DNA of 64,000 nucleotides from Cyanobacteriota bacterium (GTDB taxonomy: Bacteria > Cyanobacteriota > Cyanobacteriia > Cyanobacteriales > Nostocaceae): the NCBI GenBank assembly GCA_046045965.1, contig JBJOKS010000003.1, positions 1 to 64,000 on the forward strand, read 5' to 3'. Each line of letters begins with the position of its first letter. Position 1 is the stretch's first letter. Positions 38,301 to 53,300 of this stretch are shown here, piece by piece. A program made the position numbers.

Positions 38301-41300
38301 ATAACGGTAGTGGTATAACTGGTGTTGCCTATAATTCTCAAATTATGGCAATTAAAGTTTTAGATCAGAATGGCTCAGGTTCCTATGCAAATATTGCTAA
38401 TGGTATCCGTTATGCTGTAGATAATGGCGCTCATGTAATTAACCTCAGCTTAGGAGGAAATTCTGGTAATAATACTCTCAAATCAGCTATTGAATATGCC
38501 AGCAGTAACGGTGTAATTGTTGTTATGGCCGCAGGTAATAATGGAGATTCTACACCAACTTATCCGGCTCGTTATGCTGAAAATTCAGGAATTGCTGTTG
38601 GGGCGGTAGATAAAAATAATCAACTGACTAATTTTTCTAACCGTTCTGGTTCTCAAGAAATTAAATATGTGACTGCTCCTGGTCAAGACATTTACTCTAC
38701 AGTTCCCAATAATCAATATGCGACTTTTAGTGGCACTTCTATGGCCGCTCCCCATGTTGCTGGGGTAGTGGCTTTGATGCTTAGTGCTAACCCCAACTTG
38801 ACAGAAACCCAGGTGCGGGAGATTATCACGAGTACGGCTGACAATAGCACAAATATTCAAGAACCCAGTCAGCCTTCAAATCCTTCTCCTTCTCTACCAT
38901 TTCCATTTCCTATTGATTTATTACCCTTTGGCCTGATTGATATAGGATCACAATTTCCTACTGATATAGGCTCACAATTTCCTACTGATATTGGAGCAGA
39001 CTTTCCAATAGGTTTACCTGCACAATCAAATATACAATTACCTTCGGTTGTTTTATCTGGTGGTGATTTTGGTGATAAAACTACTAATGTAGAAAGTTTT
39101 AATCAGCAGAATGATGACAGATTGGTTAGTTTAGTTTCTCAGTCTTTATTGCGTTCTTATGTCAGTTCTGAGGTTCAATACTCTATTGCTGGTGATGGGG
39201 ATATTCAGGAGGAGGAGTTGTTTGGAAAACGATAATTTCTTTACATACTTTGTTTGTTTTCCGCAATTCTAGATAGTGCGTTAGATTCAATAAATTCTGC
39301 AAGAGGTCTATTTTTAAGATTTGAACCACCCTAAATTGTATTTAGGGTTAAAAAGAGTGGTGATAAATAGTTGTTTAAGAACAGGTAAAAATAACCTAAT
39401 AACCTAGTTTTTCTGAATTCCATAACACAAACGACCCACTAACCATTGTGGAGCTTGATTTTTATCTTCATTATTTTTTGTCCGTTCAGTTTTCATCCTT
39501 TCTGTAGCTATTTTCAAAGCCGTCAAAAATTCCTCTAAATTATGCGTTTTTGAACCATCTTGTTCATTGCTTCTAGTTTGCCAATCCCATTTTTTCCACC
39601 CACTAGGAACTTCTAAACTTGCTGTTAAAATATCAAACTGGAGTTTGTAAATACCAGATTCAGGAAATTTCTGAGGTTGGATGACAGCAGTAAAATTTAA
39701 CTTATTTTCTTGGGGTATAATTTGCCAATCTTTAAATTCAATTGCCTTATTTACTTCCTGACTAGCATCAATTTCTGTAAAATTTTTGGCAAATTTATCA
39801 AATTTCTCAGCTTTAACTTTTGCTTGTAAAGAATTAGCATCAACCAATAAACTATGTTCAGATGGGGCTAAATTCACACTATAATTAATAGTTAAACTAT
39901 CTTGTTGACGAGAATCTATTTGTAAGAGTTCATAGTGACCTTGACTAACTTTACTAGCAGCAACTCCATCTTTCACTAAAGATAGAGGTCTAGTAATTCC
40001 TGTGGGTGTTGTTGGTAGTGTTTCTAATTTAGATACTTGCTCAAGAATATGATCAGGATGGAAAATCATTAACTTACTCATATCACCATTAGCTAATGAT
40101 TGATTAGAGTTATATTTTTGTAATTCCCCAAAATAATACTTGACATCTTGATATGGTCCAATGAATAGAACATAAAATGGCCGCATTTTTTCTGGTTGTT
40201 TACCAGAATTATAATCAAAGGTTTGCAGTTGATTATTTTTATCTACATAAACCTTACCATTAAATTCACTTTTAACAGCCCAAACACCAACAGCATAATC
40301 TTTTTTATCAGAATTAAAATAAATATCTTGAATTTTTTTATTTAATTTAGTTACATCGCCGCTATTTTGTTCTAAATCTGTAATAATCACCGTCATTTTG
40401 GGTTGATTTTTCGCAGAAGGAATAATAGCTGCATCTATAGGACTAGATACTTGTTTAAATTTAGCATTACTGCCATCATAAAAAACAGAAGTTGCTCCAA
40501 AACTATAATATTCACTACTTGTAATCTTCTGCATGGGATTACCAATACGATAGTATTCAACTGGTAATTGCCCTGTTAACTCAAATACTTTTCTCAGTGA
40601 TTCTAAGGCTTTAGTATAGTTAGTTTCTCCATCTTTTACATAACCTAACATCGAACCACTACCATCTAGATAAATAGCCACATTTAGAGTATCTGATTTA
40701 CTAGCTGTTTGATTATTGACAGAATTAACATTGGGAATTTCACATTTTAACTCTTCTTTTTTGTTGCAAGCTGTTAGGAAAAGTGCAATTAAGACCACAA
40801 TTAGCAATTTGATCCGCATCATTTTCTACATTCTCCGCTAATACTTTTGTGTTGATATGTTTACTATTACTAATAAATGTTAAGTAATTTTACGGTATTT
40901 TGTGTTGCCATTTCCATAACAATATGAGAGTATAACAAAGAATATTCATGTTAAGTCTAAACAAGAACACAAATTTCTAGATCAATCGAAATTATCAGGA
41001 GGGCTAATGAAGCCGTGGGAGATCGTCAGAATCATTATATTTACTGTCATCGGTGCTGCACTTATGTTTTTGGGGCAGCGTCTCATCTATGAAAATCAAA
41101 TCGTACCCATTCAAAAAATCTCCTTGGATAGTTGGCTTGCTGCTGACTATACCACAGCCGCACTGATTATGTTCGGAGTCTGTATGTTTTCAACGATTGT
41201 CTGGTGCGTATTAGCAGCTACCAGCAAGTTTACTGATGGCAGCAAGACAGGAAGTTGGATGTTGCTGTGGTGGTTGTTAGGACTGCTACCAATGGCTGGA

Positions 41301-50300: not shown

Positions 50301-53300
50301 AATATTAAATTACATATTCATAAACTAAAAACAGTAGAAAAATCATTTGATTTTCGTGGTATTACTCCCTCATTAGATACTCATTTTCTCTTAATTAAAC
50401 CTGCTAGAGTGTCGAGTTTACCTAATGGTAAAGAATGGAAGTTATTAGAAAAGGGAATTTTAGAATTTACTAATCATGTTTCTGGTGTTTCATTTAGATC
50501 ACATTTAGATACAGATGAGCAAGAAAATCAAGTTAAAGAGAATTTAGAAAAGAATAATTTAGAAATTGAAAATATCAATAATCAACTAAATAATTTGAAA
50601 TTACAGTTAGGGCAGTTGCAAGAGGAAAACACAAATTTAAAATCGCAAATAAACATATCAGAAATTAAAGATAATCAAGCAAATACTAATGTTACAATAC
50701 TTAAAATAAATAAACAATTAAATGAGGTTAAATCTGAGTTAGACAAGTTTGATATACAACGTCAAAATCTAGAATTAAAAATCAAAAATATTCCAATAGT
50801 TAGAGATTCTGTAAATTTGCCAGATATAGATTTACTTAAAAAACAAATAGAATTATTTGGATTACTACACAATTATAATCTTAAATTAGATTTTCCCGAA
50901 AAAAGACAAGTAGCAGAAACCATAGAAAGTAAATTTAATCGTATGAATGGTTCGCAACAGATATTACCAAGATTTGAATATAAAAATCAAGGTGAATATT
51001 GGATTGTTAATAATAGGTATTTAGTACCTAAATTTAATTTTAAGATAAATACTTATGTATATGAATTTCTATCTTTATTCTTTGAGTGTCGAAATTATAA
51101 TAATTCCACTTGTGACAGTTTCATTCTCATCAACCCCGCTCACGTAGCAATGATAGATAATTCAGAAAATTGGCAGGTTACAGAAAAAGGAATTATTGAA
51201 TTTATAGATACTCAGCAAACAGCAACAAATAATAATCCAGAAGTATCAAAGATTTATGAACAATTGGAAAATTTGAAATCAATGTTAGAAAAGTTTCAAG
51301 AAGAACACAAGCATTTAGATTCGCAACTAGGAAAAATCACAGTTCTCAGAGATTATGTTTATCTGCAAATAGACTTAATAAAAGTACGCCTAGAATCTTT
51401 AGAAAACAAACAGGAAAATTGACTATTATGAATTTGACTGACTTTCATAAAAAGGGTGAAAAATATACCCACCCTAAAAGATTTGATAGCTTATTGATAA
51501 TAATTACCTCACAGAAAAAGCCTCACTAAATCTGCGTGTAATTGGCTCAACAATAAACGTCAAAATCGACTTCTTCCTAGTAACAATCTCAGCATTTGCA
51601 GCCATCCCTGGCGTAAATTCCACCTCTTGTCCGCGCACATTCATCGAATGCTTACTTAACTTAATTCGCGTCGGAAAAACTAAACCTAATTTTTCATCAA
51701 CAACCGCATTCGGACTAATTTGTAAAACTTCACCATCAACAACACCAAATTCTTGAAAAGGGAAAGTTGCTAATTTGACCTTTGCTTTCATGTTCTGACG
51801 GATAAATCCTATATCTCTGTTCAGGACTTTCACCTCTAATAACATTTCTTCACCTTCTGGTACAATTGAAAGCAATTCTTCACCAGATTGAACTGGTCCT
51901 TGAGTAGCTTTGATTTTGTAAATTGTTCCCGCTACAGGTGCTTTAATTGTTTCTCCATCTTTTTGCTGTTTAGCTTGTTCTAATTGTCCAGCAACATTAG
52001 CTAATTCTTCTTTTCGTCTATTTATCTGCGTTAAAATTTCACTTTGTCTTTCTGATGCTAAACGTAAACCTTGATTACGAGCAGCTTGATAAGCTTGTTC
52101 TGCTTGGCGAATTTCTTGGTTTTGAGCAGCAATATCTTTTTCTAAAGATGCAACTCGATCTTTTGCTTCTGTAATTCTATTTTTGGCATTAGTTACTTCA
52201 TCTGTCGCTCTAATAATATCTGTATTCGCACGATTTAATCTTTCCTGTGCTTCTAAATAATCAACTCTGGGAACTGCACCTGGATTTAATAAAGTGCGAA
52301 GATTTTCTTCTCTTTTTTGGGCAACATTTAAACTATCTTCAAGTTGAGAACGGATACTTTCGGCATTAACTAAATTAGTTTGAGCATTAATAACACTGGT
52401 TTTCGCACTGGCTAAATTTTCTTGTAAGCGAGTTAAACGAATTTTGGCTTGATTAATAATTGAAAGCTGACGTTGTGCTTCTGCTTCTGCTGCTGCTTTT
52501 TGGGCTTTATAGTCTAATAAACGAGAATTTAACAGTTCATCTTGTAATTTTGTGCCGGCGATTTTTTCACCTTTTCTTTCTGCTTCTAAACGTTGTAAAT
52601 CCTCCTCAATTAGTTTACTAGCTTTAGCCAGTCGGTTAACATCGGTTTGTTGTAAGTTGGGGTCACGTTCAATTAAAACTTGATCTTTGGTAACGCGATC
52701 GCCCTCTTTCACTTTCACTGCTAAAATAGATCCATTACCCAAAGATGTCACAGGTCTAACTTGACTAGAAGCAATTAATTCTCCTGGTGCTGTCGCTACT
52801 TCATCAATTTCAGAAAAATGCGCCCAGGAAATTGCACCAAATACAATAACGCTAATTGTTCCCGCTAATAATCTTGTATAAATTGCTGGTAATTCCTGTA
52901 CAGCTTTACCCAATTCATAAGATAATTGTTCCTCTGGTTTGGCAAATCTTTCTTTGGTTTGACGTGCTTGAACAGCATTTGCAAATAGGGAATATTTCAT
53001 AATTTGTTAGTTGTTAGTTGTTAGTTGTTAGTTGTTAGTTGTCAGTGGTTTTTTCTTTGCAACTAACCACTGACTAATGACTAAATAGCTAAATAACGGC
53101 GCAAAAAGTTTTCTAAAGTTTCCAATTGAAAGTTATAAATTCTTTCTAAATTGGCGATTTATTCTTATCGAAACCGTTCCGCTAGTGGTAGCAGGTTTGA
53201 TGCTAATCCAGATGGGTGTAAAATATTGTAATCTAAGCCACTACTTTACAGATATCTTTCCACTGCTTGTTTGGTTTTGAACACGGGAGCATCTTCATAT

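Follow-up and report, generated by a model that had tools for sequence, protein, structure and literature searches.

The window analysed here is a 64,000-nucleotide stretch of a Nostocaceae genome (contig JBJOKS010000003.1), which carries an island of approximately 12 kb with eight genes (39404..51422). All eight ORFs listed in the survey's finding were recovered at these coordinates. The first gene, g00468, is on the reverse strand and the other seven (g00469–g00475) are on the forward strand; the divergent g00468 and g00469 are separated by an AT-rich spacer of 184 bp (40823..41006), presumed to be a bidirectional promoter. The island fills an exchangeable slot between a subtilase gene (37694..39235, forward strand; Pfam Peptidase_S8) and an HlyD-family gene (51504..53000, reverse strand; Pfam HlyD_3), which lie outside the system and are both kept in the sister genomes G107 and G160. 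In G107, from a sister species, the slot is filled by an alpha/beta-hydrolase gene and a caspase-NB-ARC gene, a replacement seen in a single case. The GC content of the locus is 0.320, compared with 0.381 for the genome, and none of 390 12-kb tiles was equally low. The survey's description of a low-GC system is valid for the locus as a whole, but it is the cassettes (0.287) that pull the GC content down; the core genes alone (0.345) were equalled or undercut by 48 of 706 7-kb tiles. Neither terminal repeats nor a non-coding array was found at the locus, and the direct repeats present are the ends of cassette coding sequences. Two metatranscriptomes contain contigs that span the locus, but because these also extend into the flanks, they may stem from DNA carry-over.

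The core consists of four genes. The product of g00468 (39404..40822, reverse strand; 472 amino acids) is a vWA/MIDAS-like lipoprotein, predicted to be extracytoplasmic from a signal peptide with a lipobox cysteine, which the survey had not reported. Across 46 homologues, Cys19 and Asp149 were invariant and Asp53 and Ser57 nearly so. None of these family members matched the Pfam VWA model, and the profile matches to the integrin alpha-1 I-domain were weak (E 0.5–1); the conserved residues and these matches support the earlier vWA assignment. The adjacent g00469 (41007..41480, forward strand; 157 amino acids) encodes a small protein with three to four transmembrane helices predicted from hydropathy, in which W66, W88, and P137 were conserved across 39 homologues. 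It had been described as a four-helix membrane protein; the membrane location stands, but only three hydrophobic segments were clear at the threshold applied.

The third core gene, g00470 (41484..42998, forward strand; 504 amino acids), encodes a tubulin/FtsZ-like GTPase. The T1 glycines and the FGGTGA signature of the T4 loop (F181-G182-G183-x-G185-A186), which is of the GGGTG(S/T)G type typical of FtsZl1, were invariant or nearly invariant in 46 homologues. We obtained the same Tubulin_2 (PF13809) score as the survey, 26.3 bits (cut-off 27), with the match spanning 68 of 356 model positions, so that g00470 falls below the gathering threshold that a full-model FtsZl1 match exceeds. Like FtsZl1, it has a vWA gene with a MIDAS-like motif as its neighbour (g00468, for which PDB support was weak, E 0.5–1), but it showed no match to a coiled-coil family in Pfam, whereas FtsZl1 is a long coiled-coil protein with a helical C-terminal domain. 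The PF13809 scores were bimodal: canonical FtsZl1 proteins, approximately 900–1200 amino acids long, matched at E 1e-59 to 1e-114 (200–380 bits), whereas the family of g00470, at approximately 470–540 amino acids, matched at E 1e-4 to 1e-10, its few members that passed doing so only when the pieces were summed. Several genomes carry both types. The survey's term 'FtsZl1 operon' therefore does not hold: judged from its sequence, g00470 is a member of a short sister family of FtsZl1 and not a canonical FtsZl1.

The largest gene, g00471, encodes 1086 amino acids (43019..46279, forward strand; either TTG at 43013 or ATG at 43019 is possible as the start codon). The structural model (pLDDT 91.4, pTM 0.83) comprises an N-terminal domain (approximately residues 1–270), a beta-rich middle, an ATPase domain (approximately residues 534–950, nucleotides 44618–45868; the fold itself spans residues 533–954), and a C-terminal region. 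It matched DnaK (E 7e-8) and MreB (E 9e-8) with Foldseek, and MreB (Z 17.7, rmsd 3.4, 279 residues aligned) and DnaK (Z 16.9) with VIA. With two lobes and the phosphate-1, phosphate-2, and adenosine motifs in place, the model confirms the earlier prediction of an ATPase with an ASKHA (actin/Hsp70) fold. D541, G543, E728, D751, G753, and D758 were invariant in 75 diverse homologues. The family is large (2,195 clusters at 50% identity, E ≤ 1e-3) and has no name; its genes are linked to a tubulin gene, and in some proteins (P0195, P0209, and L101) ATPase and tubulin are fused. The nearest named family is SrfB, based on weak profile matches and an ESM Atlas score of 0.88, which is a lead only; the SrfB model PF07520 itself matched neither g00471 nor 40 homologues.

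The remaining four genes, all on the forward strand, share a cassette domain. The g00472 protein (46383..47246; 287 amino acids) has an N-terminal zinc ribbon, a coiled coil, and one cassette domain (46887–47243). The g00473 protein (47265..48674; 469 amino acids) resembles a receptor, with a signal-like N-terminus, a variable ectodomain, a transmembrane helix at residues 233–251 predicted from hydropathy, a coiled coil, and one cassette domain (48312–48671). Two cassette domains are linked by a coiled coil in g00474 (48718..49902; 394 amino acids; domains at 48763–49137 and 49537–49899), and two occur together with coiled coils in g00475 (49905..51422; 505 amino acids; domains at 50106–50471 and 50850–51206). 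The survey's count of one or two copies per gene was correct, giving six copies in four genes, but the domain measures approximately 120 rather than 100 amino acids. The notion of a constant core with exchangeable cassettes was borne out in close relatives, in which the core genes were 59–79% identical and the cassettes 22–65%. Within g00473, three orthologues shared only 25–42% identity in the ectodomain and 52–70% in the cassette domain. The earlier finding that the domain has neither a family nor a solved structural counterpart was also upheld: nothing significant emerged from Foldseek against the PDB (best E 0.57), VIA against 48,161 chains (best Z 2.8, and 2.7 in a second look), or BFVD (best E 0.53), and the ESM Atlas returned unnamed clusters only. 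These null results do not prove a new fold. A peptidoglycan-binding domain suspected by eye in g00473 was rejected, with no PG_binding_1 match at E up to 1, and PG_binding_1 was absent from 79 long cassette proteins.

The giant ATPase is the predicted docking partner of the cassette domain. In the complex model of the g00473 cassette domain with the ATPase, the ipSAE was 0.66, against 0.00 for the best control; 116 of 157 solved pairs and 2 of 215 mismatched pairs attained this value, a rough calibration given the alignments used. At least 86% of the contacts agreed between runs, and the partner pLDDT was at least 83. On the ATPase, the predicted interface lies mainly at residues 572–594 and 629–632 and in the beta domain that precedes them, while residues 798 and 823–827 make lighter contacts. 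Among the contacts are R578 of the ATPase (invariant in 41 close homologues) and, on the other side, the I-N-x-x-N consensus of the cassette. Labelled by position, the ATPase surface would correspond to subdomains IB/IIB at the entrance to the nucleotide cleft, the site of action of Hsp70 exchange factors. An exchange-factor role for the cassette is only weakly suggested, since the comparison with the GrpE profile was not significant (probability 2%) and the GrpE-like hairpin of the domain (residues 96–120) is outside the predicted interface. Cassette–ATPase fusions occur at three loci (L043, L063, and L257), and the docking model offers a concrete interaction for a domain without a known fold.

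The distribution counts of the survey were reproduced exactly: the ATPase was present in 35 of 401 cyanobacterial genomes and, within the Nostocaceae, in 9 of 45. The system nevertheless extends beyond cyanobacteria: its relatives span several phyla, across which the core gene order is conserved. A single-protein search of Bacteroidota, probably an undercount, was positive in 5 of 301 genomes. The synteny reported earlier held in most rather than all cases, since all four core genes were present in 16 of 20 fetched cyanobacterial regions; cassettes were present in 19, their number varying from 1 to 6 genes as previously noted. In IMG/VR, the tubulin and ATPase occurred together in 11 of 14 loci, some of which adjoin relaxase, integrase, or Mu portal genes. 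Many relatives combine one cassette with a ZorA/ZorB-like motor, whereas the g00471 clade has cassette arrays and no motor. The motor pair was present in 27 of 54 co-oriented relatives, with ZorB/OmpA-like matches down to E 1e-16 and ZorA/MotA-like partners, although part of the ZorA matches comes from coiled coils; the transmembrane Asp was retained in 34 of the 37 matches listed. No ZorA/ZorB motor was found in the window or the genome, and the genome (92% complete) showed neither a ZorB-like gene nor a second ATPase of the g00471 family. Among 40 homologues chosen for their odd architecture, five carried caspase, three TIR, two kinase, and one trypsin plus VMAP-M1 domains, and at L039 the ATPase is fused as an effector within an iSTAND-MoxR-vWA system. 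The ATPase motifs were intact in 295 of 297 native proteins but in only 2 of 16 in which the N-terminal part was replaced; the motif-dead paralogues are located within arrays or bear caspase, TIR, or kinase domains.

No description of this system was found in the literature searched, and the pairing of a tubulin with a giant ATPase is not described in the papers that could be searched, but several known systems resemble it in part. In the available parts of PMC2875224, FtsZl1-vWA-B7-MotB/OmpA operons likewise place a vWA gene beside a divergent tubulin-like GTPase, have a patchy, multi-phylum distribution, and contain a MotB/OmpA and membrane protein pair that also occurs in many of our relatives. 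They differ in the length and PF13809 class of the tubulin, and neither the layout of this island nor an ASKHA ATPase, a 3–4-helix membrane protein, or a cassette appears in supplement 6 or in parts 1 and 2 of the four parts of supplement 5. Zorya senses phage with a ZorAB-like motor, and Zorya I–III, as presented in the accessible text of PMC11946911 and PMC11890865, share with the relatives ZorA-like and ZorB-like genes, the transmembrane Asp, the OmpA domain, and a proposed scheme in which sensing at the envelope brings in partners from the cytoplasm. The set of partners differs here (tubulin, ASKHA ATPase, and vWA lipoprotein), and the g00471 clade is motor-free; ZorC, D, E, F, and G were absent, none of the eight proteins matched PADLOC, and 17 downstream proteins of relatives matched only ZorA, ZorB, or generic coiled-coil models. 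The MoxR-vWA ternary and DO-GTPase/GAP1 conflict systems, as covered in the available sections of PMC7159879, also combine a constant NTPase switch with variable modules and inactive paralogues, and have caspase, TIR, VMAP-M1, and iSTAND partners in common with the present system. Their own tubulins are of the long coiled-coil type, their HSP70s are accompanied by GrpE or DnaJ, and no MoxR, DO-GTPase, or GAP1 was identified by Pfam among the eight genes; DO-GTPase-like clusters follow the cassettes at L036, L201, L203, and L229 and adjoin only some loci. SrfB (PF07520)/SrfC (PF10139) clusters similarly contain an ASKHA-motif protein of approximately 1000 amino acids, and the gene after it encodes a coiled-coil protein that is beta-rich at its C-terminus, but the match is confined to the phosphate-2 region (E ~1e-5) and the partner NTPase is SrfC, not a tubulin.

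Taken as a whole, the evidence leans towards defence over a cytoskeletal role, a choice that the survey had not made, without proving it. We give about an even chance to an envelope-sensing anti-invader system, most likely directed against phages, with a constant switch and exchangeable sensors. This reading draws on the predicted docking, the cassette–ATPase and tubulin–ATPase fusions, the Zorya-like motors, and the slot exchange, together with the conflict-domain fusions, the dead paralogues, and the signs of mobility (patchy distribution, low GC content, and IMG/VR loci). The vWA lipoprotein, the fast-evolving g00473 ectodomain, and the soluble zinc-ribbon and coiled-coil cassettes would respond to an envelope event; the ZorAB-like ion motor would probably do the sensing in those relatives that lie outside the g00471 clade. 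Each cassette domain would then dock on the giant ATPase, and tandem or coiled-coil cassettes might cluster it and alter its nucleotide state. The fusions suggest that the N-terminal domain of the ATPase engages the tubulin-like GTPase, beside the small membrane protein, and that the two may together form a polymer or complex locally, either blocking the invader or arresting the cell. In relatives, motif-dead ATPases lacking the N-terminal domain, absent from this genome, could serve as regulators or decoys, or could carry caspase, TIR, or kinase domains. A more tentative proposal is a fuller immune machine of a kind not described before, with a scaffold of tubulin and actin-fold ATPase for defence signalling. 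Its envelope sensors, a Zorya-type motor in the ancestral form and an enlarged set of variable receptors in the g00471 clade, would signal through the adaptor domain to the ATPase, which would trigger tubulin assembly, while dead ATPases would co-assemble and bring in these effectors. Should the island prove defensive, current detectors are overlooking an immune system found in bloom-forming and in filamentous cyanobacteria. The island connects the uncharacterised FtsZ-like operons described in 2010 with Zorya-type motors and with caspase/TIR conflict proteins, and makes the role of bacterial FtsZ-like paralogues directly testable.

Several observations weaken the defence reading: the flanks are not rich in defence genes, the slot exchange was seen only once, the motor is absent here, and the complex is a model. 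MotAB-like motors, moreover, serve many non-defence tasks. No nuclease, pore, or other toxic effector was recognisable in the eight genes, which counts against defence. Clustering in defence islands was not seen, with 8 of 92 neighbours matching PADLOC at 1e-12 (a raw count, without a control set, from 92 of 124 listed neighbours), seven of them generic by inspection (ABC ATPase, TnpB, trypsin, sigma-54). Nor do the caspase and TIR fusions establish that the parent system is defensive, because inactive versions of housekeeping proteins also end up in conflict systems, according to the available sections of PMC7159879. A non-defence machine for envelope remodelling or stress, in which a tubulin/actin-fold scaffold, ancestrally powered by a MotAB-like motor and tethered by cassettes, repairs or reshapes the membrane or wall, is possible but less probable than defence. 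Both NTPases have cytoskeletal folds, MreB and MamK being the top scorers in the fold comparison of g00471, and the conserved core order, the mostly housekeeping surroundings, and the lack of a toxic effector fit such a machine. Makarova and Koonin (2010) proposed membrane or wall remodelling for FtsZl1 operons, the canonical cyanobacterial examples of which end in a membrane protein and a MotB/OmpA gene (available parts of PMC2875224). Remodelling is harder to reconcile with the loss of the island in the sister species in favour of the caspase-NB-ARC pair, the rapid turnover of cassette number and ectodomains, the carriage by mobile elements, and the broken copies in several genomes (L035 and L042).

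We consider it improbable that the island is an SrfABC-like apparatus for chaperone-assisted assembly or export. In such an apparatus, GrpE-like exchange factors would serve an Hsp70-like ATPase, and the product would be a surface structure or the delivery of proteins during cell–cell contact or antagonism. The operon has no conserved gene for a secretion channel or a cargo, and the profile links were not significant: the best link in the chain from cassette to GrpE, which was rejected, was a Bacteroidota post-ATPase domain (E 5e-4, probability 31%), and there was no Pfam GrpE match. GrpE chains accounted for 3 of the 16 VIA matches with Z ≥ 2 among the 48,161 chains, and the GrpE idea predated the search, but these scores (Z 2.0–2.5) are within the noise and RelE-type toxins scored equally. 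The proximity to SrfB and a GrpE-like motif, recognised by eye, at the end of the gene after SrfC-SrfB point the other way. In addition, the structural alignments of g00471 with DnaK and BiP extend to residues 1060–1067, and some Bacteroidota loci include a true Hsp70.

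All eight open reading frames of the locus (39404–51422) were found as the survey's finding described them, as was the low GC content. When the genome was divided into 12-kb tiles, none of the 390 had a GC content as low, an effect due chiefly to the cassettes (genes g00472–g00475, carrying six copies of a beta-rich domain of ~120 amino acids). None of the eight proteins passed a Pfam or NCBIfam cut-off, and none was matched by PADLOC. Within its own genome, every component was unique to the locus, except for two weak matches, one to the ATPase profile (G000:C63 near 1656, E 9e-8) and one to a ZorA-like model (G000:C50 near 4077, E 6e-6). 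The ATPase recurred in 35 of 401 cyanobacterial genomes, and the cassettes, present in 19 of 20 fetched regions, varied from one to six genes per region, both in agreement with the survey; the four core genes, previously syntenic in eight of eight loci, were all present in 16 of the 20 regions. Broken copies (L035, L042, and L199), in which the ATPase has an in-frame stop, the small membrane gene is disrupted, or cassettes are missing, show that the locus turns over.

The description of the system as cyanobacterial proved too narrow. Among the matches listed, from at most 600 candidates, the same order (vWA, small transmembrane protein, tubulin, ATPase, cassette) recurred in Poribacteria, Acidobacteriota, and Bacillota, besides picocyanobacteria; in Bacteroidota loci the four core genes are retained and the cassette position is taken by a more distant gene. 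The ATPase profile retrieved 2,195 clusters (50% identity) at E ≤1e-3 and 838 at E 1e-30. In IMG/VR, tubulin and ATPase occurred together in 11 of 14 loci, six being near-identical, and relaxase, integrase, or Mu portal genes lay beside some. Distant versions (L277–L282 and L285–L288) were cargo of mobilisable or prophage-like contigs; L286 has two additional downstream genes, one for a DUF4357 protein and one for a non-specific endonuclease. In one branch, seen at L100 (13447–17139), L102, and L104, the place of the cassette after the ATPase is taken by a true Hsp70 together with a conserved ~690-residue protein. The locus represents a real, widespread, and undescribed relative of vWA/FtsZ-like operons, with a new ATPase family and a new, predicted adaptor domain. 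We found no account of it in the literature covered, which included few subscription papers and, in part, supplements that may list members. The portions consulted of PMC2875224 (parts of the main text and supplement 5, and all of supplement 6) describe long FtsZl1 accompanied by genes for vWA and MotB/OmpA proteins, not the present layout; those of PMC11890865 mention neither FtsZ, tubulin, vWA, Hsp70, nor actin-like proteins. Parts of PMC7159879, PMC9871819, and PMC11946911 were also used.

The ATPase g00471 was modelled confidently (pLDDT 91.4, pTM 0.83), and the proposed actin/Hsp70 fold was borne out over residues 533–954 (MreB: Z 17.7, rmsd 3.4, 279 aligned residues), although the scores for MamK (17.3), DnaK (16.9), and FtsA (16.4) are too similar for assignment to one family. 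Its catalytic motifs were invariant across 75 diverse homologues. The tubulin g00470 keeps the T1 and T4 signatures, but it is not a canonical FtsZl1, as it had been labelled: PF13809 scores in the 401 genomes split into long frames, mostly of 900–1170 amino acids (E 1e-59 to 1e-114), and the g00470 family, of 490–530 amino acids (E 1e-4 to 1e-10), with both classes co-occurring in genomes including G178, G246, G274, G300, G328, and G370. The assignment of g00468 as a vWA protein stands on an invariant lipobox cysteine, MIDAS-like residues, and weak integrin I-domain matches. At L201 (3464–7150), L203, L211, and L229, a gene for a WD40 protein of ~1220 amino acids lies between the vWA and small membrane genes.

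As reported earlier, the cassette domain (model pLDDT 93.3) had no significant fold match in structure searches. In L043, L063, and L257, domain and ATPase are parts of a single fusion protein, and a complex model of ATPase residues 255–1086 with the g00473 cassette domain predicts that the two bind (ipSAE 0.66; runs 0.66, 0.71, and 0.63; 0.00 in all three controls); the ipSAE mark, attained by 116 of 157 solved pairs and by 2 of 215 mismatched ones, is rough for the alignments used here. At least 86% of contacts agreed between runs, with partner pLDDT of at least 83, and the best contacts joined cassette residues 71–74 to ATPase residues 574–584, both conserved. By position, the predicted contacts fall on subdomains IB and IIB, the site at which exchange factors engage Hsp70; the cassette may act in nucleotide exchange. 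A kinship with GrpE, suspected ahead of the search, gained no support from profile tests; GrpE chains were 3 of 16 rows at Z ≥2 in the fold search, within noise, and the GrpE-like hairpin lay outside the predicted interface. In planctomycete SrfC-SrfB loci (L124, L125, L127, L128, and L129), the gene that follows has a C-terminus which, on visual inspection, resembles GrpE; the GrpE profile comparison gave E 0.007, and Pfam gave no match.

The 244 non-identical cassette proteins included 85 with an internal transmembrane segment and 37 with an N-terminal zinc ribbon, and some carried WD40 or TPR repeats. g00473 is receptor-like and crosses the membrane once; in comparison with three relatives, its outer part is far more divergent (25–42% identity) than its cassette domain (52–70%) or the ATPase (73%). 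In many relatives, a single cassette is followed by MotA/ZorA-like and OmpA/ZorB-like genes that keep the transmembrane aspartate. Of 112 loci, 95 had 4 kb or more of downstream sequence; among these (duplicates included), and with a ZorA model that misses Bacteroidota versions, a ZorA-like gene occurred in 27 of 54 with a co-oriented vWA gene versus 0 of 41 with a divergent one; 27 of 28 ZorA-bearing loci had one cassette, whereas divergent-vWA loci had one to five. Because the latter, including the window's locus, form one cyanobacterial clade inside motor-bearing lineages (FastTree support 0.71–0.95, midpoint root), this contrast reflects only one or two events, in which the motor was apparently lost and the putative sensors multiplied, and carries no statistical weight. 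No ZorB-like gene was found in the window's genome (92% complete).

Catalytic motifs were intact in 295 of 297 ATPases of native architecture but in only 2 of 16 with the N-terminal domain replaced (sets partly redundant; 12 distant full-length orthologues mis-binned by HMM excluded). All second copies scored within cassette arrays (L031, L043, L059, L060, and L063) were degenerate, and G160, of the same genus, has such a copy immediately preceding the orthologue of g00475, a position left empty in the window. Caspase, TIR, or kinase domains occur on other dead copies; the two for which the surroundings are available are solitary, one beside Pepco and a resolvase, the other adjoining a caspase-NACHT gene and a primase. 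One intact ATPase (L039, 1910–10066) is joined by fusion to an iSTAND-MoxR-vWA ternary system; there and at L222, this system is inserted between tubulin and ATPase, and the ATPase has an extra 270-residue N-terminal extension, forming its effector part. Tubulin fusions join the N-terminal domain, the one absent from dead copies, suggesting that this domain binds tubulin. In L036 (2–6066), L201, L203, and L229, cassettes precede three DO-GTPase-like genes and a large protein (with PG_binding_1 in L036); such systems are nearly absent in cyanobacteria (Kaur 2020, PMC7159879, in part).

The putative function leans towards defence. In G107, of the same genus, the flanking subtilase (window 37694–39235) and HlyD-family (51504–53000) genes, at 84–91% DNA identity, are just 5.3 kb apart and enclose an alpha/beta-hydrolase and caspase-NB-ARC pair (L290:3333–7672; G107:C7). 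This is an NLR-like conflict pair, and the swap, a single case, hints most directly at a defence role; the ordinary genes immediately neighbouring other loci count against one. The analysis establishes the gene content, folds, motif status, fusions, and slot exchange, and it predicts that cassette and ATPase bind. An anti-invader system, in which envelope sensing would trigger nucleotide exchange on the ATPase, tubulin assembly, and an outcome for the invader or the cell, takes about half of our confidence. Envelope remodelling unrelated to defence is possible but clearly less probable, and chaperone-like assembly or export is improbable.

Short repeats at 53000–53430, downstream of the slot, have many copies in sister genomes, and contigs have loose ends there. 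Upstream of the subtilase gene, two tandem pentapeptide-repeat genes (34896–37449) share a conserved helical N-terminal domain.
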